This document shows, piece by piece, positions 2 through 44,254 of a DNA stretch of 64,000 bases. Below the pieces are notes generated by a model. It worked only from the letters and a program-made list of their open reading frames with translations, did no database searches and had not been told where the DNA came from. This DNA is from a virus. The position numbers and the translations under genes were made by a program. Position 1 is the stretch's first letter; the number at the start of each line of letters is the position of its first letter. The DNA is taken from the IMG/VR virus record IMGVR_UViG_3300042731_008413, positions 19,421 through 83,420 of that record; one strand, given 5' to 3'.

Positions 2-151
2 AAGGGGCACGTCAATATGTTCAACGTTGAGCAATTGCAAGAGTTGATGGAAAAGGCCGGGTTTGAAACGGTTGAGTGTTACCATGACCAACGGGTGGAT
101 GGCTACGAAACGCAGCATAATTGTGTGACGGGGTTATTCAAGAAGGGGTAG
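2..151 (+). CDS. C-terminal fragment of a probable class I SAM-dependent methyltransferase (5' end outside window)
   Basis: Frame 2 reads KGHVNMFNVEQLQELMEKAGFETVECY...KKG*. HxxxFxxxxLxxLxxxAGF is a typical C-terminus of class I methyltransferases in glycan loci. Confidence 0.55.
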   Translation, partial: KGHVNMFNVEQLQELMEKAGFETVECYHDQRVDGYETQHNCVTGLFKKG

Positions 152-153
152 GG

Positions 154-1113
154 ATGAACATTCTTTGTGTCAGTACCGCAGCCATTACCACGCCCCCCGC
201 CCAGGATGGCTACGGGGGAATGGAACGGGAAATGGCCTGGCTCATTCGGGGTCTGAAGGAGTTAGGTCATCACGCTGGTCTGGTGGGCAAGCCGGAATCT
301 AAGGCGGAAGTCGATATGCTTTACGCTTCCGATGACGAAAAGAAATATCCCCAATTGGTTAGTGAAGCTATCAAAGACTACGATATCATCATCGACTTTA
401 GCCACGATAAGACTATTGGGCGTGAGTGGCCTGACAAACCCCAGATCAACACCTATCAAGTGATGACTATTTCTCACCGGGTCAATCCGGTTTTTATTAG
501 CTATGGCCAGCGGCGGCACATTGGCATTGATGGCCCGGTTATCTATTATGGCATCGATTTGAATGTTTACCCCTGCTACGATGGCCCTCGGGATGATTAT
601 CTACTTTACGTAGGGTCCCTGATTATCGAGAAGCGACCTCATTGGGTAGCTGAGTTAGCTCAATTGACTGGTCACAAGGCTGTTATTGCTGGCCCGCGCT
701 GGCAACAGGAATATTGGCCGACTATCGACCAGTTCAGCCAGTTAGATCACGTTACGGTGTTGGATGAAGTGGCCGGCCAGGAGAAGCTGGAGCTTATTCA
801 GCGGGCCAAGGCTCTGGTTCATCCGGTAGGGGGCAAGGGTTGGGTTGAAGCCGGGGCTATTATCGTCCTGGAAGCCCTGGCTTGCGGCACCCCGGTTATC
901 TGCACTTCCAACGGCTGTCTGCCGGAATACATTTCTCATAACCTCAATGGTTTTATGGGGGCCAATGTCCCGGAGATGATGATTGGGGTCAATTCGTTGT
1001 GGTCCATTCAACCGGGTCGTTGCCGGCTGAGTGTTAAGCATTTTAATTATCAAAGGATGGTCAGGGATTACGAGTCGCTGGCTACAGAAGTGATTGGAGG
1101 CAAACGATGGTAA
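154..1113 (+). CDS. Glycosyltransferase family 4 (GT-B)
   Basis: N-terminal PP..GYGGMER, EKRP and EALACGTPVI motifs. ATG 154 follows the upstream stop. Confidence 0.9.
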   Translation: MNILCVSTAAITTPPAQDGYGGMEREMAWLIRGLKELGHHAGLVGKPESKAEVDMLYASDDEKKYPQLVSEAIKDYDIIIDFSHDKTIGREWPDKPQINTYQVMTISHRVNPVFISYGQRRHIGIDGPVIYYGIDLNVYPCYDGPRDDYLLYVGSLIIEKRPHWVAELAQLTGHKAVIAGPRWQQEYWPTIDQFSQLDHVTVLDEVAGQEKLELIQRAKALVHPVGGKGWVEAGAIIVLEALACGTPVICTSNGCLPEYISHNLNGFMGANVPEMMIGVNSLWSIQPGRCRLSVKHFNYQRMVRDYESLATEVIGGKRW

Positions 1114-1439
1114 GTGACAAAGATTTGCAAAAGAACGAAGTTGAAGAGATGGTGGAATTGCCGGACATTCCCGATCCCAAGCCAGGGCCAAAGACTACTG
1201 AGTTTTATCTGACCCTGCTTTCCTACGTTCTGGCGGCGCTGGTGTTGTATGGAGTGGTCACAGCGGCGGAGGCTCAGGCCATTCTGGACAACCTCAACAC
1301 CTTTATCGGAGCAACAACAGGGCTGATTGTGGCCCTGGGACCGGTGGCTTCAACGGTGATGTATATCTACTCCCGGACTAAAGTCAAGTCCGGCACTACC
1401 GAGGCCAAGGCCAAGCTGTTTGATTCGATGCTTAAATGA
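1107..1439 (+). CDS. Small membrane protein, holin-like
   Basis: KPGPKTTEFYLTLL motif (KTTEFW-like small phage membrane proteins), two hydrophobic helices, basic C-terminus. Confidence 0.55.
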   Translation: MVSDKDLQKNEVEEMVELPDIPDPKPGPKTTEFYLTLLSYVLAALVLYGVVTAAEAQAILDNLNTFIGATTGLIVALGPVASTVMYIYSRTKVKSGTTEAKAKLFDSMLK

Positions 1440-2134
1440 TCGTTATCGTCCCATCCTACAATGACCGCCCCTTTATGGAGCGGTTGTTGGAGTCGCTTTA
1501 CACTGAACCTCCAGGAGCTTCGTTTCGAGTCCTGGTGGTCAGCGACTTTTCCAACGATGGCACCGAGGAATGGCTTTCTAGCCTGAAGGGTGTCGATGTT
1601 ATTCGCCCCGACCAGAAAGCCTACTTCACCCGCGCCTGTAACTTGGGGCTAGAGTGGGGGTTGCGCTACACCGACGAGGAGTGGTTATTCCTGCTTAATT
1701 CGGACACCATCGTTACCCCGGATTGGTGTGGGGCGTTACAGGCTACCGGCAAAAAACTAAAAGCGGGCATTGTGGGGGCTACCCTGTTGAATATGGATGG
1801 CACTATTCAACATCTGGGGGCTTATGGGGTGGGGTACCATTTCAACATTAATAAGCATTGGGTGCGCTACCGACAAGACAGGCTGGTACCGTGGGTGACC
1901 GGGGCGGCGATGTGTATAAACCGAAGCGTTCTTAAAAGAACTGGGACTTTACCCCCCTATGCTTACAAGCAATATGACGATTCTGATCGGCGGTTTTGTT
2001 GGGAAGCTAGAATTAAGTATGGAGTGGAAGTTGCAGTTTCGGTGGGGTGTCAGATTTATCACGATACTCATGAGGCCCGATCCATCAGAATGAGTCGAGG
2101 GGATTACACCCGGAGGGATATAGCCGATGGCTAA
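1436..2134 (+). CDS. Glycosyltransferase family 2 (GT-A)
   Basis: VIVPSYN, VVSDFSNDGT, LLNSDT, WVTGAAM motifs. Confidence 0.9.
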   Translation: MIVIVPSYNDRPFMERLLESLYTEPPGASFRVLVVSDFSNDGTEEWLSSLKGVDVIRPDQKAYFTRACNLGLEWGLRYTDEEWLFLLNSDTIVTPDWCGALQATGKKLKAGIVGATLLNMDGTIQHLGAYGVGYHFNINKHWVRYRQDRLVPWVTGAAMCINRSVLKRTGTLPPYAYKQYDDSDRRFCWEARIKYGVEVAVSVGCQIYHDTHEARSIRMSRGDYTRRDIADG

Positions 2135-2618: not shown

Positions 2619-3316
2619 CAGAAACAATCCTGTTTCTCCATATCCCCAAAACCGGCGGCACCAGCCTGATCCAGATTATGGAATGGCAGTACGGGCAAAT
2701 TTCCAAAAGCCCTGATGCTGACTTTTTAGACCTATCGGAGTGGCAACGGTTCAGCGGTAGATTCGATAAACAGGCCGCTGCCGGACATATCCCTTATGGC
2801 ACCCACGAAATCTTCCGGGATTGCCGGTATATCACTATCCTGAGACATCCGGTAGACAGGATCGTTAGCCTCTATCATTATATCAATCAACTGGCGGGTG
2901 GGGCTGTTGATTTCTGGAAGAATCTAGGTGTCACACAAAAGATGACTTTACTGGACTTTGTGAATTTACCGATAGCCAATTTGCGGAATGGGATGTGCCG
3001 CCAGCTAGTTGGTAAGCCATTCTATTTTGAACCAACAGACGGTTGGGGGATGACCCCTCATTATTATCGCAAGGCCAAAAGTAATTTGAAGCCAATGCAA
3101 ATCGGCATTACTGAGCAATTCCATAAAACAATTCGTAAGTTCGAGATGGAATTTGGTTGGAAAGTGGTTGATATTCCCCATCTGAATAAGGTTGATTATC
3201 CTCGTTTTGATATGTCTTCCGAAGCGATGTTTGAGGTCTACGAAGCCATCAAACGACATAATGAGTATGACATCTTATTGTACCATGCGGCTGTAGATTG
3301 GAGTGGCTTGCGATGA
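2615..3316 (+). CDS. Sulfotransferase family 2-like protein
   Basis: FLHIPKTGGTS (5'-PAPS binding loop) and LRHPVDRIVSLY (3'-phosphate binding). ATG 2615 overlaps the upstream stop. Confidence 0.85.
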   Translation: MTETILFLHIPKTGGTSLIQIMEWQYGQISKSPDADFLDLSEWQRFSGRFDKQAAAGHIPYGTHEIFRDCRYITILRHPVDRIVSLYHYINQLAGGAVDFWKNLGVTQKMTLLDFVNLPIANLRNGMCRQLVGKPFYFEPTDGWGMTPHYYRKAKSNLKPMQIGITEQFHKTIRKFEMEFGWKVVDIPHLNKVDYPRFDMSSEAMFEVYEAIKRHNEYDILLYHAAVDWSGLR

Positions 3317-4332
3317 CCAGATTAGCAATGGTGCGCGATCAACATCTCAACGTCTGGGACATTGGCAACTATTACGGTGTAATAAACCACGGCATCGAGC
3401 TTCTGGTTTGTGGTATGTCTCAGGCCGATTGGGATAGCATTATGGAATATTATCCCCAGGCCAAGTTCCTGAATTACAGCCATATCTCCGAGGTATTCGA
3501 GCAAGAGCCGGATGTAATCGATGTCCCAGATCCTTTCTATCCCTTCTCTCAATACTTTACCGAACGGTTTAAGCGAACGGTAGTAGTTGGTTGGGAGAAT
3601 CTACCGGGCAAGACGTTGTTTAGCCGGGGAGCGCAACGATGCCTGGAACAAGCCTGGAAATGCACCGCTCGCAGCCCGATGGCTCGCCACGAATTGAAAT
3701 TCAACGGGGTGCCGAATAGCAAGATAAAGGTCATCCCAGGGGCAGTAGATACCGATTTCTTTAAGCCTGACATACCGGTTGAGAAACGCCGGCGAGCAGT
3801 GTTGTTTGTGGGGCGAGTGACCCAGGAAAAGGGCTTTCTGGACATCTTATGGGCATTGCACCAATCTGGTATCCCTCTGTGGGTAGCCGGAGCATCTGAA
3901 CCACCTTTGCAGTACCAAAAATGGTTAGAGCAACTTGATGTTGAAATCGAATGGCTTGGTTTCCTGAATCGCACCGAATTACGAGACCTCTACCAACGAG
4001 CGGGGGTGTTGTGTGTTCCATCGATTCCGTTGGTCAACGACACCGACCCGTTTGCTCAATGGTCCGAACAGTTCGGACAGGTCTTTATCGAGGCAATGGC
4101 TTGTGGTTGTCCCATTGTTTCGACCAATAGCGGGGCTATTCCCTGGGTGGTCAAGGGAAGCAACCATTTGGTCGATCCCAGGGATTGGCCAATGCTTCTG
4201 GGGGAGATCAAGGCGTTGCTGGATAACCCGGATTTACGAATGTCGGCTTCGATTCTGGGGCGGCAATTCGCGGTTGAGTTTTACGATCAGAAAGTGATAG
4301 GCCAACGGATTAAGGAGTGGTACGAACTGTGA
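3313..4332 (+). CDS. Glycosyltransferase family 4
   Basis: LFVGRVTQEKG and EQFGQVFIEAMACGCPIV motifs. Confidence 0.9.
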   Translation: MTRLAMVRDQHLNVWDIGNYYGVINHGIELLVCGMSQADWDSIMEYYPQAKFLNYSHISEVFEQEPDVIDVPDPFYPFSQYFTERFKRTVVVGWENLPGKTLFSRGAQRCLEQAWKCTARSPMARHELKFNGVPNSKIKVIPGAVDTDFFKPDIPVEKRRRAVLFVGRVTQEKGFLDILWALHQSGIPLWVAGASEPPLQYQKWLEQLDVEIEWLGFLNRTELRDLYQRAGVLCVPSIPLVNDTDPFAQWSEQFGQVFIEAMACGCPIVSTNSGAIPWVVKGSNHLVDPRDWPMLLGEIKALLDNPDLRMSASILGRQFAVEFYDQKVIGQRIKEWYEL

Positions 4333-5280: not shown

Positions 5281-8200
5281 ATGGACATTGCTGTTTTTGC
5301 ACATCACGTTGGGTCTCAGGGTCTTAAGCCATCAGGACAGTATGGCGGTGGGGAACTTTTGACGTTTGGTTGGCTGTCGGCCTTGCAAAAGTATTACAAT
5401 GTAATGACCGTAGTGCCGAATGGGGTCTACCCAGCTTTCGATTCGGCCTACGAATACGGCATTGACCTGTCAGGTATCGACTGGCGACCAGTGGGGGATA
5501 CAGCCGACTGGATTCGGAAATATGATTGCCTGATAAACATCAGCCACAGTAGCTATATGCCCCCTATCTGCCAGCGCAATATTATGGTGACGATGTTCCC
5601 CCAACAGCCGGATTGGGATACGTCCGGCTACGATACTATTTGCGCTATCAGTCAATTTTCGGCGGACTGGATCAAGCGATATTGGGGTCGTGAAGCCAAA
5701 GTGGTTTATCCCCTTCTACCGGTGCAAGATACCATCGACAGAATCGAGCAAGCCGGCTACGAGAAGCAAAACAACATTGTAGCCATTGGCCGATTCTTTA
5801 ACGTGCCGTGGGGTAATAACAAGAGTCACAGTACGTTGATCTCGGCTTTTCAGGGGATGTATAAAGGTGATTGGGCCTTGACGTTTGTAGGGTCGGTCCA
5901 GGATCAGAAATATCTTCAAGAAGTCAAGCAAGCGGCCAATGGTGACCAGCGCATAAAGTTTTTTCGCGATCTCAAGCGGGAGCAATATCTGGAACTGTTG
6001 GGTAAGTCCAGGTTTTTGTGGCACGCGGCAGGATATGAAGCCACCAAACCATCTTCAATGGAGCATTTCGGGATTATTGCGGTAGAAGCTCAAGCCGCGG
6101 GCACCCAGCCATTTGTATTCAATGGAGGTGGTATTGTTGAGATACCTGGGGTTATTCCCTGGGACACTCCGGCCCAACTGAGTGAATACACCGTGGTTGA
6201 AATCGAAAAGCCAACCCCCAACCCGATGCAAGAAAATGCCCTGACTTTTGACATCGAACGTAATACCGAACGGCTTTTGGAAATTATCGAGGACCCTCAA
6301 GTGGTTGTTGTTCCCAAACCTGAGCAAGCCAAGATTTATGTGGGTGACCCCCATCCCAATGACATCAAAGTAGGGGTGATTTCAGATGATCCCAACATCA
6401 CCACTGGCTTTGGGGCGGTTAGTCGAGCAGTTGTTAAGGGACTGATTAAGCGGGGTTTTCGGGTGGCTGCAATGGGTATCCAGAACCCCATCGTCGGCAA
6501 GACCAAATTGGTACCAGAAGACATCAGACGAATCTTCGGAGAAGTAGTCAATAATCCCCAACTCCCCACAGCCAAAATGATGACTCGGGTGTTCGAGGAG
6601 AAGTTATCTGAACTGGAATTGTGTACCACCTGGCGGGGCTGTTCCCACGATCCCTCCGGGTTTGATATGATCGAGCAGTTCCTTAAAATCGAGAAGCCGG
6701 ACGTGCTTTATATCAATTACGACCCCGGCAACATTCGTAACATCCTGAATGGTATCCAGGATGCCCATGTTGACATCCCTATCGTGGCTTATGTCCCCAT
6801 CGAGGGTAGCCCGGTCATCCCCCAATACATCGAGATGTTACGAACCATTAAGGTGATGAATGGGGAGCCGATTGTCTATACCTATGCCGGGCAGAGGGCG
6901 GTAATGGAGGCTGGTGGACCAAAATGCAGGGTAGCTCATCACGGTTGTTTTTCTGGTGATACACTAATTACTTTAAGTGATGGATCGAAAAAACGCATAG
7001 ATCGCATTGTGGCAGATAAAGATCATAGTGTTTTGGGGACACATAATGGCAACCCGGTTATTTCTTGTGTTTATGATTGGATGACTATCCCAATGATGGA
7101 TAGTCATATATTAAAAATAACTTTTGACACCGGCGATACATTAAGAGTTACGCGAGATAACCTAGTTTTTACCCAAGATGGATGGATTAAAGCAAATGAT
7201 TTGGTGGTCGGTAGTAGGTGTGGTATAATCAATACTAGTACACCACACGCAAATGGAGACTATGATGCCAAATCAAAAAATATGGACCAAAGACGAGGAG
7301 AGTTGGTTGAAGGCCAATTATCCTACAATGACTCAAACCGATTTGAAAAAGTCATTGGGGAGAACTTGGCCCTCAATAAAAAGAAAGGCGCAAAGACTGG
7401 GCTTATACAGGGAAATAAAAAATCATCACAGAAGATGGACCAAAAAAGACTTGGATTGGCTCAAGTGGAATTACCCTTATCTGGATCAAGAAAAGATAGA
7501 ATCTCACTTAGGGCGAAAATGGAGAGCAATTCAAATAGCAGCCAGGAAAATGGGGGTAGCCAGAACAAACTCCGCCGTGTATCAAAAGTCAATAGATCAA
7601 AGGCCAAAACTAACATCGGAAGATTGGGCTTATTTGGCTGGAATAATCGATGGAGAAGGTCATTTGACGTTATCAAAAAGCAATCGAAAAAGTGGTTTTG
7701 TTTTGTCTCCAAAGATAGGGGTGGCAAATCAAAGCAAGGCTTTGATGGATTGGATAGTTTTGTCTCTTCCTGTTTATGTTCATTGCGACAATGGTGTAGA
7801 ATCTGGGTGGGGGTGGTGTTACCGAGCGCAGATAATTGGGTTCAAGGTAATTCATGTATTAAATGGTATTCTTCCATATATGAAAATAAAAAAAGAAAGA
7901 TGCAAGATTCTGATTTCTTTTTGCGAAAGAAGAATGGCTTTGGGGAATCAGGAACCGTATTCAGAACAAGATTTAGAGGATTACCAGAAGATGAAAAAAC
8001 TAAACTCAAAAAAGGCTTTTCGGTCTCTTGGGGAGTGATAACAAATATCGAATTGGATCACGAATCGATAGTCTACGATCTGAAAACTAGTACAAGTAAT
8101 TTTGTTGCAAATAATATTGTTGTTCACAATTGCGATCACGCCCCGTTCAGGATGCTTGACCCGGAAACCCGCAAGCAGTTAAAAATCGCTTGTGGGTGGG

Positions 8201-8922
8201 GCAATAAAAAGGTAATGATGTTTGTGGGGCGCAATAAGCGTACCAAGGGTTTTGGAACACTCCTTAAAACGGCCAGAATCCTCAAGGATATGGGCCGGGA
8301 TGACATCGTGTGGTATCTCCATACCTGGGTCTGGGACCAGATGCCCAACTCCTCGATGCCCCTGGATCAATGGGCAAAGCAGTATGGGATAGCTGATCGA
8401 GTAATGTTTCCCGAAATTCAACACCAGGTCTACGGCATCCCCTATGATGAGCCAGCCACCCACCCCCACATCGATGAGAACGAATTGGCCCAGATGAGTG
8501 AGCAAGACGCGGCCAGGAAACTGGCCAGGATTGCCTTTAACTCTCTGTCGCTTATCGAGCGATATGGTATAGCTACCGCGTTTATCAACGCTTCTGAAGT
8601 TGAGGGGCATGGCTTGACATACTTGGAAGCAATGGGTTGCGGGGTGCCGGTAATCAGCGTCGATGACCAGGGAGTTCAGCAGGAGGTCATCGGGGACGCG
8701 GCCCTGTATGTTCCGGTCAAACATTGGGATGATTTTCATACCGGAGCAAGATTGGCTCAGGGTGATCCCCAGGACTTTGCCAGGGCTATCATCGACCTGG
8801 TTGATAACCAGGATTTGTATAACGAAATGCAACAGAAGGCTCTGGAACGGTATCAACAGTTTAAGTGGGATAAGACGATTGATATTATCGCCAAAGCTAT
8901 CATTGAAAGGTACGTGGTATGA
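5281..8922 (+). CDS. Tandem GT4-GT4 glycosyltransferase interrupted by an intein
   Basis: Two GT4 signatures (EHFGIIAVEAQAAG; EGHGLTYLEAMGCGVPV). Intein between HHG|C and HN|C. Confidence 0.9.
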   Translation: MDIAVFAHHVGSQGLKPSGQYGGGELLTFGWLSALQKYYNVMTVVPNGVYPAFDSAYEYGIDLSGIDWRPVGDTADWIRKYDCLINISHSSYMPPICQRNIMVTMFPQQPDWDTSGYDTICAISQFSADWIKRYWGREAKVVYPLLPVQDTIDRIEQAGYEKQNNIVAIGRFFNVPWGNNKSHSTLISAFQGMYKGDWALTFVGSVQDQKYLQEVKQAANGDQRIKFFRDLKREQYLELLGKSRFLWHAAGYEATKPSSMEHFGIIAVEAQAAGTQPFVFNGGGIVEIPGVIPWDTPAQLSEYTVVEIEKPTPNPMQENALTFDIERNTERLLEIIEDPQVVVVPKPEQAKIYVGDPHPNDIKVGVISDDPNITTGFGAVSRAVVKGLIKRGFRVAAMGIQNPIVGKTKLVPEDIRRIFGEVVNNPQLPTAKMMTRVFEEKLSELELCTTWRGCSHDPSGFDMIEQFLKIEKPDVLYINYDPGNIRNILNGIQDAHVDIPIVAYVPIEGSPVIPQYIEMLRTIKVMNGEPIVYTYAGQRAVMEAGGPKCRVAHHGCFSGDTLITLSDGSKKRIDRIVADKDHSVLGTHNGNPVISCVYDWMTIPMMDSHILKITFDTGDTLRVTRDNLVFTQDGWIKANDLVVGSRCGIINTSTPHANGDYDAKSKNMDQRRGELVEGQLSYNDSNRFEKVIGENLALNKKKGAKTGLIQGNKKSSQKMDQKRLGLAQVELPLSGSRKDRISLRAKMESNSNSSQENGGSQNKLRRVSKVNRSKAKTNIGRLGLFGWNNRWRRSFDVIKKQSKKWFCFVSKDRGGKSKQGFDGLDSFVSSCLCSLRQWCRIWVGVVLPSADNWVQGNSCIKWYSSIYENKKRKMQDSDFFLRKKNGFGESGTVFRTRFRGLPEDEKTKLKKGFSVSWGVITNIELDHESIVYDLKTSTSNFVANNIVVHNCDHAPFRMLDPETRKQLKIACGWGNKKVMMFVGRNKRTKGFGTLLKTARILKDMGRDDIVWYLHTWVWDQMPNSSMPLDQWAKQYGIADRVMFPEIQHQVYGIPYDEPATHPHIDENELAQMSEQDAARKLARIAFNSLSLIERYGIATAFINASEVEGHGLTYLEAMGCGVPVISVDDQGVQQEVIGDAALYVPVKHWDDFHTGARLAQGDPQDFARAIIDLVDNQDLYNEMQQKALERYQQFKWDKTIDIIAKAIIERYVV
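7219..7258 (+). promoter_or_regulatory. Extended -10 promoter and RBS inside the intein, driving the nested endonuclease
   Basis: TGTGGTATAAT at 7219-7229 (perfect TRTGnTATAAT). GGAG at 7255-7258 before ATGs at 7262/7265. Confidence 0.7.
7262..8038 (+). CDS. LAGLIDADG homing endonuclease with N-terminal Myb-like repeats, nested in the +1 frame of the intein
   Basis: WAYLAGIIDGEGHLTL motif and ILPYMKIKKER. Two WTxxExxxLxxxYP repeats. The ORF track starts at 7253; the RBS favours 7262/7265. Confidence 0.88.
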   Translation: MMPNQKIWTKDEESWLKANYPTMTQTDLKKSLGRTWPSIKRKAQRLGLYREIKNHHRRWTKKDLDWLKWNYPYLDQEKIESHLGRKWRAIQIAARKMGVARTNSAVYQKSIDQRPKLTSEDWAYLAGIIDGEGHLTLSKSNRKSGFVLSPKIGVANQSKALMDWIVLSLPVYVHCDNGVESGWGWCYRAQIIGFKVIHVLNGILPYMKIKKERCKILISFCERRMALGNQEPYSEQDLEDYQKMKKLNSKKAFRSLGE

Positions 8923-9503: not shown

Positions 9504-9533
9504 TCGATGGACATCCCCATACCTATAAAAATG

Positions 9534-9566
9534 TAATACGTTCTGACTGTGGAAACGGTCGGGGCG
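9534..9566 (+). repeat. 33-bp hairpin direct repeat, copy 1 (copy 2 at 11502-11534)
   Basis: TAATACGTTCTGACTGTGGAAACGGTCGGGGCG vs TAACACGCTCTGACTGTGGAATCAGTCGGGGTG, 28/33 identical. Abuts the CRISPR repeat. Confidence 0.8.
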
Positions 9567-9719
9567 CGGACCACCCCCACACCTGTGGGGAAATGTTATC
9601 CCGGAGGGTTAGCAGTTCTTCCAGATCACGGACCACCCCCACACCTGTGGGGAAATGGTTTCGCCACTGTCTATTCCCTCACTCAGATCACGGACCACCC
9701 CCACGCCTGTGGGGAAATG
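9567..9719 (-). CRISPR. CRISPR mini-array, 3 type I-E-like repeats and 2 spacers
   Basis: 29-nt repeat CATTTCCCCACAGGYGTGGGGGTGGTCCG (minus) at 9567-9595, 9629-9657, 9691-9719. 33-nt spacers, period 62. The CCCCAC/GTGGGG hairpin is typical of I-E repeats. Confidence 0.92.
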
Positions 9720-9915
9720 ACTTAAATGGCCTATGAGATAGAGTAAATTCCCCAAATGAATCTTATTAGGTTGTGAGGTTGACAATCCAACAACCTCTCT
9801 GTAGCCCTCACCGATCTGGGTCCAAGCGACGAATCTCCCCACCGATTCAGTTACGACATCTACAGCCTCAGTTGTGTTCATAGTCAATCGCAGACGATTC
9901 AGCCTAACGGCCAAA
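9720..9915 (-). ncRNA. Putative omega-RNA/tracr-like scaffold of TnpB
   Basis: Lies directly 3' of tnpB. Nested complementary segments (TTGAC/GTCAA, CTGTAG/CTACAG, TGAATC/GATTCA). GAGGCTGTAGATGTCGTAAC...GAGGGCTACAGAGAG resembles, from recall, 3' scaffolds of QRDLYSAFLA-type TnpBs. Confidence 0.6.
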
Positions 9916-11301
9916 TTAGAGACCAAAACTGGTCGGTCCATTTTGGTCTATATCGTCCAATGCCGCCTGCAAGAGCGGTCCCACCCTCGGCCATTGCTCA
10001 TTGGCAACGACTGCATTGAACGTTCCATCTTCGATACAGGTTGCTAAAAATGCGCTATATAAATCTCTTTGAACCACCTCCCCATCATCGAATTTATGCC
10101 ATCTTTGCGACAAAGACTTCTTTTTGAATTCGCCGGTTTTGTGGTCTAGCTGGCTCAGTTTTGTGCTATAGGTAGAGAACTCTTCAACTAGACCGTCATA
10201 ATCATCCATCTTTTGCTTCAGCCGGGCTACAAACATCCCCGGAGCACGCATGCCAACGGATTTTCCGAACATCTTTTGAAATGCAACGTAAGACAACTTT
10301 TCCAAACGGATTACGTTACCCATTTGGAGAATCTGGTTGATTAGTTGTCCGTGTAGCGACTTGCGGTATTCTGCTTGTTTCCTTTTTAATTCGCTTAATT
10401 TTATTTCGGTCTTTAGTTGCCTATTTGATTTTACCCATCGTTTGAGTTGCGAACGTGGTTTAACGGTTCCATCTGTGTTGTAATTGTCAGGGTTGTTAGC
10501 GCGCCGTTGTCGGTCTACCTTACGTTGTAATAGTCGTATATCTCGTTGAATATCCTCTAGTTCCGCGCAGAATTGTTTTAGAAACGCCATATCTTGAGAA
10601 ACAACAGCGACAGTTGAGGGGCCGATGTCCAACCCAACAACACCTTTCCCAAGAGAATGTCTTTTGTATGGTTTGCCTACATTGACGAGTTGAGCAAAGA
10701 ACCTGGTTTTTCCATTGAGTTCACGACGAATCAACCGGACAAATTTTATTTCAGAATTCAGGCCATGAGACATTATCGGGTCATCGTAATCTATAATAGC
10801 CTCAAGTTTGATCTTCTTCCCGTTGCGCCCGGAATTCCACACAACACAGTCATCTCTCCAAATAATGCCTTGTAAATTCGTTACTCCCTCAACCGAATTT
10901 AACTGCCCAAACCTTTTGAATTTTGGCCTCCCCCTTTTTGGGTCAAACAAATATTCGCTCACCCAGGTAAAAGCCCTGGATGCCAGTTTTTTAATGGTCT
11001 GACTGTCTAAATGATAACCTAACCAGGAGTAACCAAATTGTTTAGCGAAGAAATGAATGTCGTATTCCCTAAACCCAAATTCTTTGTTGAGCCTGACAAA
11101 TTCAGCGGTTCTTTCTTTGCCTTTTGGGAGTAGTCGAGCCTTTTGCCAATCCTTTGATTCCCTCATCAACTTCAAGCGGCGAAGGGATTCGCCCAAGCAA
11201 GCATTATAGACCTGCCTGGCCGCCTCAAAACGCTTATTGAGTACAGACTCCTGAGTGGGGGTTGCTTTTAGGGGGATTTCGGTAATAAATCTATCAGACA
11301 T
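9916..11301 (-). CDS. tnpB: TnpB/Cas12-like RNA-guided endonuclease (461 aa), RuvC D-E-D intact, zinc-finger cysteines absent
   Basis: N-terminal helix ARQVYNACL. RuvC-I VGLDIGPS, RuvC-II IRLEKLSY, RuvC-III QRDLYSAFLA. No tnpA adjacent. Confidence 0.9.
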   Translation of the reverse strand: MSDRFITEIPLKATPTQESVLNKRFEAARQVYNACLGESLRRLKLMRESKDWQKARLLPKGKERTAEFVRLNKEFGFREYDIHFFAKQFGYSWLGYHLDSQTIKKLASRAFTWVSEYLFDPKRGRPKFKRFGQLNSVEGVTNLQGIIWRDDCVVWNSGRNGKKIKLEAIIDYDDPIMSHGLNSEIKFVRLIRRELNGKTRFFAQLVNVGKPYKRHSLGKGVVGLDIGPSTVAVVSQDMAFLKQFCAELEDIQRDIRLLQRKVDRQRRANNPDNYNTDGTVKPRSQLKRWVKSNRQLKTEIKLSELKRKQAEYRKSLHGQLINQILQMGNVIRLEKLSYVAFQKMFGKSVGMRAPGMFVARLKQKMDDYDGLVEEFSTYSTKLSQLDHKTGEFKKKSLSQRWHKFDDGEVVQRDLYSAFLATCIEDGTFNAVVANEQWPRVGPLLQAALDDIDQNGPTSFGL

Positions 11302-11430
11302 TTTTTAGATAGTTATCGATGGCTCGCCTGACATGCTCGGCCATTGATAAGCCGGTATCACGAACGAGTTGCTTTAATCTATTGTATTGAAGAGTAGTCA
11401 AATAAATGTTTATGCGTTTCATATACATCT

Positions 11431-11459
11431 AATATACATCAAATGGGCGTTATTGTCAA
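11431..11459 (-). promoter_or_regulatory. Sigma70 promoter of tnpB
   Basis: Minus strand TTGACA-17-TATATT. ATATACATC direct repeats overlap it. Confidence 0.7.
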
Positions 11460-11467
11460 ATTGGGGA

Positions 11468-11496
11468 TTGACTTTTTTGGTATTACAGTATAATAT
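11468..11496 (+). promoter_or_regulatory. Head-operon promoter overlapped by palindromic operator
   Basis: TTGACT-17-TAATAT. Operator TATTACAGTATAATA at 11481-11495. Confidence 0.7.
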
Positions 11497-11501
11497 ACTT
11501 A

Positions 11502-11560
11502 TAACACGCTCTGACTGTGGAATCAGTCGGGGTGTTTTCTTTTGCCCCGAGAAGGGGCAA
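11502..11560 (+). promoter_or_regulatory. Leader with terminator-like hairpin (direct repeat copy 2) and RBS-occluding hairpin
   Basis: Hairpin 11506-11535 followed by TTTCTTTT. TTGCCCC-GAGAA-GGGGCAA (11542-11560) covers the SD of ATG 11564. Confidence 0.65.
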
Positions 11561-43766: not shown

Positions 43767-44254
43767 AATCCCCTTGTTAATTCGTTTTTTACTACATCTC
43801 TGAGGTCCGCCCATCTGAGGTTTGCCCCGCTGAGGTTCGCCTCTCTGAGGTCTGCCTCGCTGAGGTTCGCCCCCCTGAGGTCCGCCCATCTGAGGTTCGC
43901 CTCTCTGAGGTCTGCCCCGCTGAGGTTCGCCTCTCTGAGGTCTGCCTCGCTGAGGTTCGCCCCGCTGAGGTCCGCCCATCTGAGGTCCGCCCCGCTGAGG
44001 TCCGCCCCGCTGAGGTCCGCCCCGCTGAGGTTCGCCTGGATTTTGGACGGAATTAACCCATAATAAATAGCCCACCCGATCATTTTCTTGAGATCGGTTT
44101 TTACCACATTCTGCCAGAAAGACTCTGACTCTTCTTTTGTTCCCCATAGGGGGCTAATGTCCAGTCCTTTGGGGTACATCACCAAGAATCTACTGGTTAG
44201 AGGGCAAGTCATATCAATACCCTTGTTTTTCAATACTTCTTCTGTTATCTTCAT
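43763..44254 (-). CDS. Pentapeptide repeat protein
   Basis: About 16 A(D/N)L(S/R)x repeats, 15-bp tandem DNA repeats at 43797-44037. Confidence 0.9.

Follow-up and report, generated by a model that had tools for sequence, protein, structure and literature searches.

Does a phage gene for a TnpB-family protein, followed directly by a CRISPR mini-array, amount to an RNA-guided system in which the array supplies the guides? The origin of type V systems from transposon-encoded TnpB is an active question, and this locus offers a clean natural comparison, with IS605 elements that have tnpA and no array in the sister clade, and loss of tnpA, a whole omegaRNA and a joined array in the clade of the phage. 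The repeat, spacer length, leader end and PAM (n = 1) of the joined array are those of class 1 type I-E. The window analysed here (64,000 nucleotides) belongs to a complete phage genome of 83,420 bp (~83 kb) from a wetland source, with direct terminal repeats.

A TnpB gene and a mini-array in one phage cassette

The cassette (9567-11459, ~1.9 kb) comprises a ribbon-helix-helix (RHH) gene, the TnpB gene, a scaffold and the mini-array, all on the (-) strand (Table 1). The initial annotation had described a 461-aa TnpB with an intact RuvC D/E/D triad, and this description held: the open reading frame has that length, D225, E334 and D413 lie in conserved motifs of the alignment, and the predicted structure (AlphaFold, pLDDT 76) matches a TnpB/Cas12f-like fold, with ISFba1 TnpB (8iaz) and ISDra2 TnpB (8h1j) as the best PDB matches (E about 1e-13). 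A sequence search of the PDB with the protein returned nothing, and a profile search of the PDB gave weak matches only (9j09 at 2.4e-06, and Fanzor2). HTH_OrfB_IS605 was the sole Pfam profile above its cut-off, NCBIfam guided_TnpB scored 78.9 bits (under the cut-off of 100) and PHROG 506 ('transposase', phrog_506) matched at 5e-42; homologues at 55-70% identity bear PF07282 and PF01385. The CxxC...CxxC Zn-ribbon (TNB) is not kept in the alignment, its four cysteines being replaced by D, T, F and D, and the identical replacement is conserved in five homologues (P0005, P0006, P0011, P0013, P0019).

Table 1 Features of the cassette and its flanks (window coordinates)
Feature	Position	Strand	Basis
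D2a, copy of 40-nt direct repeat flanking the whole cassette	9525..9564	.	repeat search
Repeat 3, terminal repeat	9567..9595	(-)	repeat search
Spacer 2, 33 nt, TGATCTGGAAGAACTGCTAACCCTCCGGGATAA	9596..9628	(-)	protospacer in source metagenome
Repeat 2	9629..9657	(-)	repeat search
Spacer 1, 33 nt, TGATCTGAGTGAGGGAATAGACAGTGGCGAAAC	9658..9690	(-)	between repeats 1 and 2
Repeat 1, adjoining the scaffold, CATTTCCCCACAGGCGTGGGGGTGGTCCG	9691..9719	(-)	repeat search
21-nt segment at the position of the ancestral cis guide	9720..9740	(-)	sits past the end of omegaRNA homology
OmegaRNA-homologous scaffold	9720..9948	(-)	alignment with sister IS605 omegaRNAs
Degenerate ancestral terminal (right-end) omegaRNA hairpin, CCTCA-loop-TGGGG	9748..9778	(-)	alignment with sister omegaRNAs
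TnpB-family RNA-guided nuclease (predicted), 461 aa	9916..11301	(-)	ORF, alignment, profiles, AlphaFold
Ribbon-helix-helix (CopG-type) DNA-binding protein (predicted), 44 aa	11294..11428	(-)	RHH_1 E 2.9e-07, RHH_3 E 3.7e-06
Sigma-70-like promoter TTGACA-17-TATATT, upstream of the RHH-TnpB operon	11431..11459	(-)	consensus match only
D2b, second copy of 40-nt direct repeat	11493..11532	.	repeat search

The promoter previously assigned to the gene is present as a match to the sigma-70 consensus at 11/12 positions, and lies ahead of the RHH gene, whose stop codon falls in an 8-nt overlap with the TnpB start (ATGTCTGA). Relatives have another small DNA-binding gene at the RHH position, which in L165 is an XRE-type HTH (PF13443, E 1.1e-09). 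TnpB is single-copy in the phage genome, and the absence of tnpA and cas genes noted earlier extends to the whole 83,420-bp phage, where no Y1 tnpA, cas1 or cas6e was found. The two copies of the direct repeat that flanks the cassette are 80% alike and are the sole two in the genome; D2b forms, on the + strand, a terminator-like hairpin in the leader of an S49 protease gene. A search for cassette-free phage relatives via this protease returned only relatives of 46-49% identity, from which the insertion site was not definable. A repeat cluster at 43.8 kb was considered as a CRISPR and rejected, being a 15-nt coding tandem repeat.

The coordinates of the array agree with the initial annotation: three 29-nt repeats enclose two spacers, and 196 nt separate the TnpB stop codon from the first repeat. 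Zero such repeats are expected in shuffled sequence, and the genome holds no further copies. The CCCCAC/GTGGGG hairpin attributed to the repeat was confirmed by folding, and this GC hairpin is joined to a 3' ...CCG handle, as in cas-linked I-E repeats. At 24/29 bases, and throughout the hairpin, the repeat is identical to that of the Anaerolineae genome G001, which comes after cas3-cse1-cse2-cas7-cas5-cas6e-cas1-cas2. Judged by its sequence, this is an array of genuine type I-E format. Likeness to an I-E leader is confined to the last few bases before the repeat, with no full leader: the 3' end of the 21-nt segment (...TTTAAGT) resembles an I-E leader end, the repeat being preceded by TTGATTAGT in the cas-linked array of G001, by GGAAGT in L263 and by CGAAGT in L281.

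A protospacer for spacer 2 was found in the source metagenome, on a 313-nt contig of run X1 that matches window positions 9595-9629 with 2 changes and has unrelated flanks. In spacer sense its 5' flank reads ...TTAAAAAG, giving AAG, of which the G equals the last base of the repeat (n = 1). AAG at this single protospacer is the canonical I-E motif and is also compatible with ARG, and an AAG-type motif is probable for the nuclease on this one case (n = 1). Spacer 1 had no match in the phage itself or in IMG/VR (exact 23-mer), a search of IMG/VR for exact 23-24-mers taken from both window spacers and the protospacer flank gave no outside match, and the spacers of any array had no match to the phage or to any of the fetched loci. 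Because the array has the I-E format and the protospacer carries AAG, adaptation by a host I-E system would be a reasonable source of the spacers.

The scaffold between gene and array

The scaffold consists of the last 33 nt of the TnpB open reading frame and the 196-nt intergenic region, and aligns end to end with the omegaRNA of the sister IS605 TnpBs. The initial annotation had called the 196 nt structured. Its single-sequence fold was no more stable than shuffles (z -0.57), but the alignment with the sister omegaRNAs revealed compensatory changes at 18/24 consensus pairs, and it is because of this covariation, not the single-sequence fold, that we call the scaffold structured. The alignment argues that it is a conserved structured RNA, an omegaRNA homologue overlapping the 3' end of the gene. 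Rfam gave no match in the window.

Two earlier statements about this region required correction. A recognisable right-end hairpin had been said to be missing; a degenerate terminal hairpin, CCTCA...TGGGG, is present at 9748-9778 and aligns with CCCC-NGGCTTTAGCCN-GGGGAG of eight sister omegaRNAs (L085, L086, L087, L169, L171, L175, L176, L013). The motif TGGGGAA (9748-9754), proposed as an anti-repeat, does occur, but as the conserved 3' strand of this ancestral hairpin. Apparent covariation of GGGGAA/TTCCCC and GGAGAA/TTCTCC was rejected on the same ground. No convincing repeat:anti-repeat pairing was found, and repeat:scaffold duplex energies were not significant; the best candidate, between the repeat handle and the stem-1 loop, occurs in the window and L165 only (2/4 loci; duplex z -1.9 and -1.1). 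The I-E-derived repeat resembles the terminal omegaRNA hairpin in outline only, as a CCCC/GGGG stem with a 9-nt linker after it. At every locus compared, a guide-sized stretch (21, 21, 17, 15-17 and 16 nt) separates the scaffold end from the first repeat, and the sequences in this guide slot are not conserved between members.

Distribution of the TnpB-array pairing

The window protein falls in a clade with L084, L164, L165 and L004 (SH-aLRT 97). The clade test covers these five loci; the close homologues P0002, P0004, P0005, P0006, P0008, P0011 and P0019 lie outside it. An array was present in 4/4 assessable members, in TnpB orientation and starting 145-215 nt past the stop codon, and near-identical loci (L165 and L166) differ in spacer content. 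The members have diverged to 50% protein identity and occupy different contexts, namely two phages, plasmid-like metagenome contigs and one Anaerolineae chromosome. In the sister clade, by comparison, an array was found at 0/10 assessable loci, Y1 tnpA lies directly upstream, and both left- and right-end hairpins are kept, whereas the window clade has no tnpA and no left end and bears an RHH or HTH gene instead. The earlier view that this TnpB lineage has departed from its transposon fits these data, the IS ends being intact in the sister clade only. Among the loci compared, the TnpB-array association holds at clade level.

The repeats of L165, L004 and L084 have drifted from the canonical hairpin, and the L165 hairpin contains G-U pairs that can form only on the TnpB-sense strand. 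In the Anaerolineae genome, 4/29 positions distinguish the TnpB-linked repeat from the cas-linked one, and the former ends in CTG, not CCG; this genome also has an IscB element whose omegaRNA abuts an I-E-like repeat. An 11-mer of the I-E repeat, CAGGCGTGGGG, recurs in both end hairpins (left and right) of the sister IS elements. A TAM for these sister elements, guessed from four left-end flanks only, was set aside.

Comparable layouts were found in other viral contigs. A 103-kb phage carries one classical TnpB and four I-E-like arrays, each preceded by a copy of one and the same omegaRNA scaffold; three of the four array units have no TnpB open reading frame, and the scaffold copies differ by 5 compensatory pairs. 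One spacer of this phage, in an exact-match search of IMG/VR, returned its own array only. In L281, a third TnpB lineage, the stop codon lies 45 nt before an I-E-like array. The TnpBs of these two phage contigs, the 103-kb phage and L281, belong to unrelated lineages and show the same design as independent parallels. Some viral contigs have I-E-like arrays but no TnpB nearby (L257/L280, L263, and L291, where the array is at a contig end).

Possible functions of the cassette and known systems

We put at about one half the probability that the cassette is a domesticated IS605-type TnpB module, acting as a miniature phage-borne type V-like system. One promoter would drive RHH and TnpB, and read-through transcription from TnpB would enter the omegaRNA scaffold and then a mini-array captured from a type I-E locus. 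The scaffold would serve as an sgRNA body or a tracr-like part, and the repeat-plus-spacer units would guide TnpB to cut the DNA of a competing element beside an AAG-type motif; host I-E Cas1-Cas2 would load new spacers at the retained leader end, and host Cascade may at the same time draw on these crRNAs. In this scheme we infer that the cassette is transcribed and its RNA processed, that TnpB is loaded with array guides and cleaves, and by which route adaptation occurs. It is favoured because of the clade linkage, the loss of tnpA, the conserved scaffold, the intact RuvC triad and the independent parallels, and also because of the strand-specific G-U pairs of L165, the precedent of the phage nuclease Cas12r (see below) and the fit of AAG to the ARG motif of the latter. 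In a second wetland study the scaffold and first repeat recur at 99% identity beside phage genes only 87-90% alike; at a depth of only 2, this difference would be weak support. Counting against the type V-like module are the I-E-like arrays in viral contigs that lack TnpB, the absence of convincing repeat:anti-repeat pairing and a PAM drawn from a single protospacer.

The array could function without TnpB, because its repeat, spacer length, leader end and AAG all suit a host I-E Cascade. It would then serve host Cascade and Cas3 alone, against a competing element, with TnpB as a linked but functionally separate passenger and the scaffold perhaps merely giving read-through. We regard this as less likely, even though much is consistent with it: the 24/29 identity to a cas-linked repeat with identical hairpin, the 33-nt spacers and the I-E-like leader-end motif, the canonical AAG whose G is common to the repeat, a phage without cas genes, the TnpB-free arrays of other viral contigs, and the documented exploitation of host CRISPR-Cas by viral mini-arrays (PMC11656645). 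What such a host-directed array leaves unexplained is the retention of the TnpB-scaffold-array layout at 50% protein identity in varied contexts, and the covarying omegaRNA scaffold at each of the three solo arrays of the 103-kb phage; the departure of the L165, L004 and L084 repeats from the canonical hairpin, and of the Anaerolineae TnpB-linked repeat from its cas-linked counterpart (4/29, CTG vs CCG), also speaks against it. Since their hairpin is exactly that of a genuine I-E repeat, the repeats might alternatively be an RNA anti-CRISPR that mimics I-E repeats and soaks up host Cas6e and Cascade subunits. This is highly improbable given the regular spacer length and one real protospacer, with a functional-type PAM, in the metagenome from which the phage comes; most known RNA anti-CRISPRs consist of one repeat unit, and the clade-level link to TnpB would go unexplained.

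Because the scaffold keeps a terminal hairpin and a guide-sized slot, TnpB may instead use a fixed cis guide only, namely the 21-nt segment. The array linkage would then reflect IS605 insertion or homing, or co-mobilisation, at I-E leader-repeat junctions, owing to the likeness of its end hairpins to I-E repeats, and the element could spread by cutting unoccupied junctions of this kind. The complete omegaRNA homologue, the guide-sized distance at all loci compared, the 11-mer common to the sister-IS end hairpins and the I-E repeat, and the IscB omegaRNA that abuts an I-E-like repeat would accord with such a history, and homing by TnpB alone has been described (review PMC13565253). We nevertheless consider it improbable: the phage has neither tnpA nor a left end and only one copy, the guide slots are not conserved and therefore have no common target, and the spacer differences between L165 and L166 point to live arrays, not inert flanks.

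The type V-like module that we prefer has known counterparts at each level. Like the IS200/IS605 OMEGA systems (ISDra2 8h1j, 8exa; ISFba1 8iaz), it has the TnpB fold, the RuvC triad and an omegaRNA over the 3' end of the gene; unlike them, it lacks tnpA, the left end and the Zn-ribbon cysteines, is single-copy, and has a right end that runs into an array. With the viral mini-arrays that exploit host CRISPR-Cas it shares one or two spacers, host-type repeats, a virus without cas genes and spacers against other elements, but those arrays stand alone, whereas the window array is fused to a nuclease guide-RNA scaffold and the pair is co-inherited across the clade. The type V-U variants V-U6 to V-U45 are TnpB clades that have an array downstream but lack further cas genes (Altae-Tran et al., PNAS 2023, PMC10691335), as is the case here; one route that the same study considers possible is for tnpB to insert close to an array already in place, and it leaves the capture of such an array open.

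TranC, the transposon-CRISPR intermediates (Jin et al., Cell 2025, as cited in PMC13565253 and bioRxiv 10.64898/2026.03.27.714800), are, like the TnpB described here, TnpB-sized effectors without a transposase and with an array downstream; they derive from IS605 or IS607 TnpB, have kept an omegaRNA-derived RNA, and some are phage-borne. The folds are similar as well (window model against LaTranC 9jfq, PDB 9jfq/9jfo, E 5e-10). TranC repeats are reported to be 32-38 bp long and are considered descendants of the 3' part of the omegaRNA that pair with a tracrRNA, whereas the 29-nt repeat of the window is of type I-E and forms a hairpin by itself, and a clear anti-repeat was not found.

The closest likeness in organisation is to Cas12r of the Thermus thermophilus Lalka phages (Lalka27a, PQ109076), a phage TnpB-like nuclease with a mini-array (bioRxiv 10.64898/2026.04.20.719267). 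The function of LalCas12r has been shown experimentally, with degenerate 29-bp I-E-like repeats, 31-33-nt spacers, a 5'-ARG PAM and no need for a tracrRNA, and a host I-E system was proposed as its route of adaptation (same source). In both cases the array lies downstream in the same orientation in a phage without adaptation genes, here with 29-nt repeats and 33-nt spacers. Cas12r spacers aim at other mobile elements, and its A-rich ARG PAM overlaps the I-E motif AAG, which the single window protospacer fits (n = 1). Cas12r has 564 aa, a 15 bp gap between gene and array and a crRNA-only guide, against 461 aa and a 196-nt omegaRNA-homologous scaffold in the window, and the window repeat is much closer to the bona fide I-E repeat (24/29) than is the Lalka repeat (15/29). 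Homology to LalCas12r was rejected (BLASTP E 0.35), and a tblastn search of the phage collection found no Thermus phage. The precedent is an analogy because the proteins are unrelated in sequence, and with no detectable similarity to Cas12r the window protein belongs to an independent TnpB lineage.

Tentatively, and at slightly under even odds, we propose that an IS605-derived TnpB with a complete omegaRNA took over the leader end of a type I-E locus together with its array and uses the spacers itself, with host I-E Cas1-Cas2 acquiring them, and that such take-over occurred in at least four unrelated phage TnpB lineages (the window clade, the 103-kb phage, L281 and Cas12r). If this is correct, type V systems would arise repeatedly by the capture of class 1 arrays as well as by duplication of parts of the omegaRNA, and one array might be used by TnpB and Cascade simultaneously; the published TranC model stresses omegaRNA splitting and duplication. 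The ~1.9-kb cassette allows a test of whether TnpB takes guidance from a class 1 array and of its need for host Cas6e, Cascade and Cas1-Cas2, and it adds a compact 461-aa candidate nuclease that lacks the Zn-ribbon and has a probable AAG-type motif. The cassette is not a first but one more, independent case of TnpB-derived nucleases with mini-arrays described recently from phages or mobile elements: TranC, V-U6 to V-U45 and above all Cas12r precede it, the last having already shown the principle experimentally.

Cassette layout and phage setting

The window spans bases 19421-83420 of an 83,420-bp IMG/VR record, which carries direct terminal repeats and therefore represents a complete phage. 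The cassette begins with a sigma-70-like promoter and continues through a ribbon-helix-helix (RHH) gene, a TnpB-family gene and a gene-free stretch into three repeats and two spacers. A TnpB without tnpA, with its own promoter and a mini-array in the same orientation, as described in the initial annotation, was found, and searches of the phage for a Y1 transposase, Cas1 and Cas6e returned none. The 29-nt repeats have no further copies in the phage (0 expected in shuffled sequence).

A 40-nt direct repeat (copies 80% alike) brackets exactly the array-TnpB-RHH cassette and is absent elsewhere in the 83-kb phage; the copy on the right forms a terminator-like hairpin within the leader of the S49 protease gene. 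This flanking duplication looks like an insertion scar, but IS200/IS605 elements are not known to make target duplications. Elsewhere in the window, a 1213-aa ORF apparently contains an intein (CFSGDT ... VVHNC), overlapped in another frame by a 261-aa ORF with a LAGLIDADG-like motif (YLAGIIDGEG). An extended tandem repeat with a 15-nt unit, CTGAGGTYCGCCCNN, in an ORF region was considered as a CRISPR and rejected, being a coding pentapeptide repeat.

Positions of features in the window and at the comparison loci
Feature	Sequence	Position	Strand	Remark
Sigma-70-like promoter	window	11459-11431	-	first element of cassette
RHH gene, 44 aa	window	11294-11428	-	RHH_1, E 2.9e-07; stop codon overlaps TnpB start codon by 8 nt
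TnpB-family ORF, 461 aa	window	9916-11301	-	
Gene-free stretch, 196 nt	window	between TnpB ORF and first repeat	-	
Degenerate terminal hairpin	window	9778-9748		CCTCA...TGGGG
21-nt slot	window	9720-9740	-	
Repeats, 3 x 29 nt	window	9719-9691, 9657-9629, 9595-9567	-	two 33-nt spacers in between
TGATCTG heptamer	window	9622-9628, 9684-9690	-	
40-nt direct repeat	window	9525-9564, 11493-11532		
1213-aa ORF	window	5281-8922		
261-aa ORF	window	7253-8038		
15-nt tandem repeat	window	about 43790-44020		
Closest array-bearing relative	L165	6271-8623		
Four mini-arrays (103-kb phage)	IMGVR_UViG_3300048060_000061	L251 11533-11765; L249 981-1496, 7200-7491; L250 5259-5675		
High-GC TnpB-family gene and array	L281, IMGVR_UViG_3300044960_000579	47-1686		
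Array past portal-like gene	L257 and L280, IMGVR_UViG_3300002334_000353, _000361	3040-3926		
Viral TnpB of other clade and array	L013, IMGVR_UViG_3300047498_000057	5355-5960		
IscB gene and array	L084, Anaerolineae OZ241372	407-2810		

The TnpB-family protein and its predicted omegaRNA

Against the NCBIfam guided_TnpB model the protein scored 78.9 bits, under the cut-off of 100; PHROG 506 'transposase' matched at 5e-42, and an N-terminal HTH_OrfB_IS605 was the sole Pfam domain to pass. Its homologues number more than 3,000, most of them with the TnpB Zn-ribbon domain. The AlphaFold model (pLDDT 76) matched ISFba1 and ISDra2 TnpB best, followed by Cas12f, Cas12p and LaTranC. By profiles and modelled fold, the protein belongs to the TnpB family, as a divergent representative. 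In the alignment D225, E334 and D413 fall within conserved RuvC motifs, confirming the intact catalytic triad originally proposed. All four Zn-ribbon cysteines are exchanged, for D, T, F and D; the identical exchange is kept in a subclade of homologues (P0005, P0006, P0011, P0013, P0019) and is therefore not decay.

The 196 nt, together with the final 33 nt of the ORF, aligned from end to end with the 3' parts of sister TnpB loci. Each of those terminates in a conserved ...CCCC-NGGCTTTAGCCN-GGGGAG-TAGTCAG, the right end of an IS, beyond which the flanking DNA is unrelated. Compensatory changes were found in 18 of the 24 consensus base pairs of the joint alignment, and the gene-free stretch is an omegaRNA homologue. 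The initial annotation had seen no right-end hairpin and had proposed TGGGGAA as an anti-repeat; neither point held, as a degenerate version of the terminal hairpin persists in the window, with TGGGGAA as its 3' strand. The end of omegaRNA homology is separated from the first repeat by 21 nt, the position of the flank-derived guide of an IS. The best candidate for pairing between repeat and scaffold joins the handle (GGUCC in the window, GGACC in L165, its closest array-bearing relative) to the loop of omegaRNA stem 1, at an identical position in both, where an A/U difference is compensated; duplex z-scores reach just -1.9 and -1.1, and this pairing is absent from two other array-bearing relatives, L004 and L084.

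Linkage to type I-E-like arrays

Sister loci with 50-60% protein identity (L085, L087, L167-L170, L176) have an IS200/IS605 Y1 tnpA immediately upstream of tnpB and the left-end hairpin GCCCCCGCC-TTCA-GGCGTGGGGA, and more distant relatives reach at least 20 copies within single genomes. The sister elements are real transposons; the window clade is not. No tnpA is present in the window, L165/L164/L166 (70%), L084 (62%, Anaerolineae chromosome) or L004 (50%, another phage), where unrelated small DNA-binding genes lie upstream, such as the RHH gene of the window and an XRE-type HTH gene overlapping the start codon in L165. We looked for spaced repeats downstream of the gene at 240 homologous loci and built a maximum likelihood tree (quick IQ-TREE search), in which the window, L084, L164, L165 and L004 form one clade (SH-aLRT 97). 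All assessable clade members carry an array oriented like the gene, its start 145-215 nt past the stop codon, with 3 repeats in the window, 16 in L084, 8 in L165 (6 in L166) and 2 in L004; in the 17-member sister clade, none of the 10 assessable loci has one. Linkage to an array holds at clade level, in a small sample of five loci. The near-identical L165 and L166 differ by two internal repeat-spacer units. A close homologue is present in only 2 of 401 Anaerolineae genomes. The L165 contig also encodes an actin-like segregation protein of ParM/ALP type and a P-loop ATPase, suggesting that it comes from a plasmid or phage-plasmid.

The type I-E character of the repeat was borne out. In the Anaerolineae genome with L084, over 70 repeats of ATATTCCCCACAGGCGTGGGGGTGAACCG lie behind a canonical cas3-cse1-cse2-cas7-cas5-cas6e-cas1-cas2 operon; the first window repeat shares 24 of their 29 bases and the same hairpin. 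Directly ahead of the first window repeat, the bases ...TTTAAGT are similar to the ends of I-E leaders (TTGATTAGT in the L084 genome; comparable in L165, L263 and L281). Among contigs of the probable source metagenome aligned to the window, one of 313 nt agrees, apart from 2 changes, with spacer 2 and one further base at either end; the flanks of the match are unrelated, and a chance match this good is not expected at the data set size. In this single case the protospacer 5' flank in spacer sense, ...TTAAAAAG, reads AAG, its G common to the repeat. AAG is the textbook I-E motif. The heptamer TGATCTG opens both spacers directly after the repeat and does not follow the terminal repeat; that of spacer 2 lies inside the matched protospacer. 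In a second wetland study, at a depth of only 2, scaffold and first repeat are 99% identical and neighbouring phage genes 87-90% alike.

Searching IMG/VR with the window repeat returned a single further contig, that of a 103-kb phage bearing four mini-arrays (repeat 26/29 identical). One lies behind a classical Zn-finger TnpB, 32% identical to that of the window over part of its length, and a TnpB ORF is absent at the other three; all four follow one shared type of omegaRNA scaffold, roughly 125 nt long, whose two helices keep pairing via five compensatory changes. At the TnpB copy, the end of the scaffold looks as if it had recombined with a repeat's 3' half, and a 17-nt segment comes next. 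A looser repeat pattern found a third TnpB-family gene, high-GC and at least 481 aa long, in L281, with a TNB-domain match and an IS607-like C-terminus, ending 45 nt ahead of an I-E-like array of GCCTCGTCCACGGGCGTGTGGGTGGACCG repeats. The same pattern found I-E-like arrays without TnpB nearby in L257/L280, L263 and L291; those of L257 and L280 (phage-borne, 10-13 repeats of GCAGTCCCCCTTCAATTGGGGGTGGTCCG, period 66) start 8 nt past a portal-like gene. L013 holds a viral TnpB from another clade (43% identity) whose omegaRNA end is intact; 16 nt beyond that end begins an array built on a different repeat, 36 nt long, GTTTTGCTCGCCCCCGATTTGTGGGGGTACGAAAAC. At every one of these loci the spacing between scaffold end and first repeat is guide-sized, 15-21 nt. 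L084 also has an IscB gene (PLMP, RuvC and HNH motifs read by eye), whose upstream omegaRNA begins one base before the end of an I-E-like repeat in a 15-repeat array, and, some 90 nt ahead of the TnpB start, a 12-mer like the repeat 3' end, GGGGGTGAACTG. Elements of the IS200/IS605 type seem to cluster at these I-E-like arrays.

Proposed mode of action and known systems

We give a probability of about 0.5 to a type V-like mode, in which TnpB with its scaffold would be guided by repeat-plus-spacer units to a competing element, the spacers coming from host I-E adaptation proteins. In its favour, the array linkage runs through the clade, transposon features are gone with the nuclease intact, the 103-kb phage has solo modules of scaffold and array, and Cas12r offers a precedent. 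On the other side, no convincing anti-repeat was found in the scaffold, and every feature of the array is also what Cascade needs. The array may instead serve host Cascade only, as known viral mini-arrays do (PMC11656645), a reading we consider the main rival and somewhat less probable; the two are not mutually exclusive. In a third and rather doubtful reading, the fixed 21-nt slot would be the sole guide of TnpB and the linkage would reflect insertion or homing at I-E leader-repeat junctions; the resemblance of IS end hairpins to the I-E repeat (common 11-mer CAGGCGTGGGG) would speak for it. An RNA anti-CRISPR role is very improbable. The observation behind the proposed TnpB-to-Cas12 intermediate was largely upheld, and its interpretation is supported in part only.

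Altae-Tran et al. 2023 (PMC10691335) described 40 TnpB-derived V-U groups with downstream arrays, excluding arrays tied to other CRISPR types and leaving array capture open as a route. TranC (Jin et al., Cell 2025) is the name given to transposon-CRISPR intermediates as a class, which includes phage-borne members. By design the nearest known system is that of the Thermus Lalka phages (bioRxiv 10.64898/2026.04.20.719267), whose Cas12r is a TnpB-like nuclease with degenerate 29-bp I-E-like repeats, 31-33-nt spacers, a 5'-ARG PAM and a crRNA of 26 nt repeat plus 18 nt spacer without tracrRNA; experiments demonstrated its interference, and the host I-E system was proposed as the route of adaptation. 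Cas12r of Lalka27a (PQ109076) has no sequence similarity to the window protein (E 0.35) or the L281 protein, and these are therefore independent lineages. This kind of system is already published; the window is a new independent variant, distinguished by a full omegaRNA kept beside a nearly canonical I-E array.
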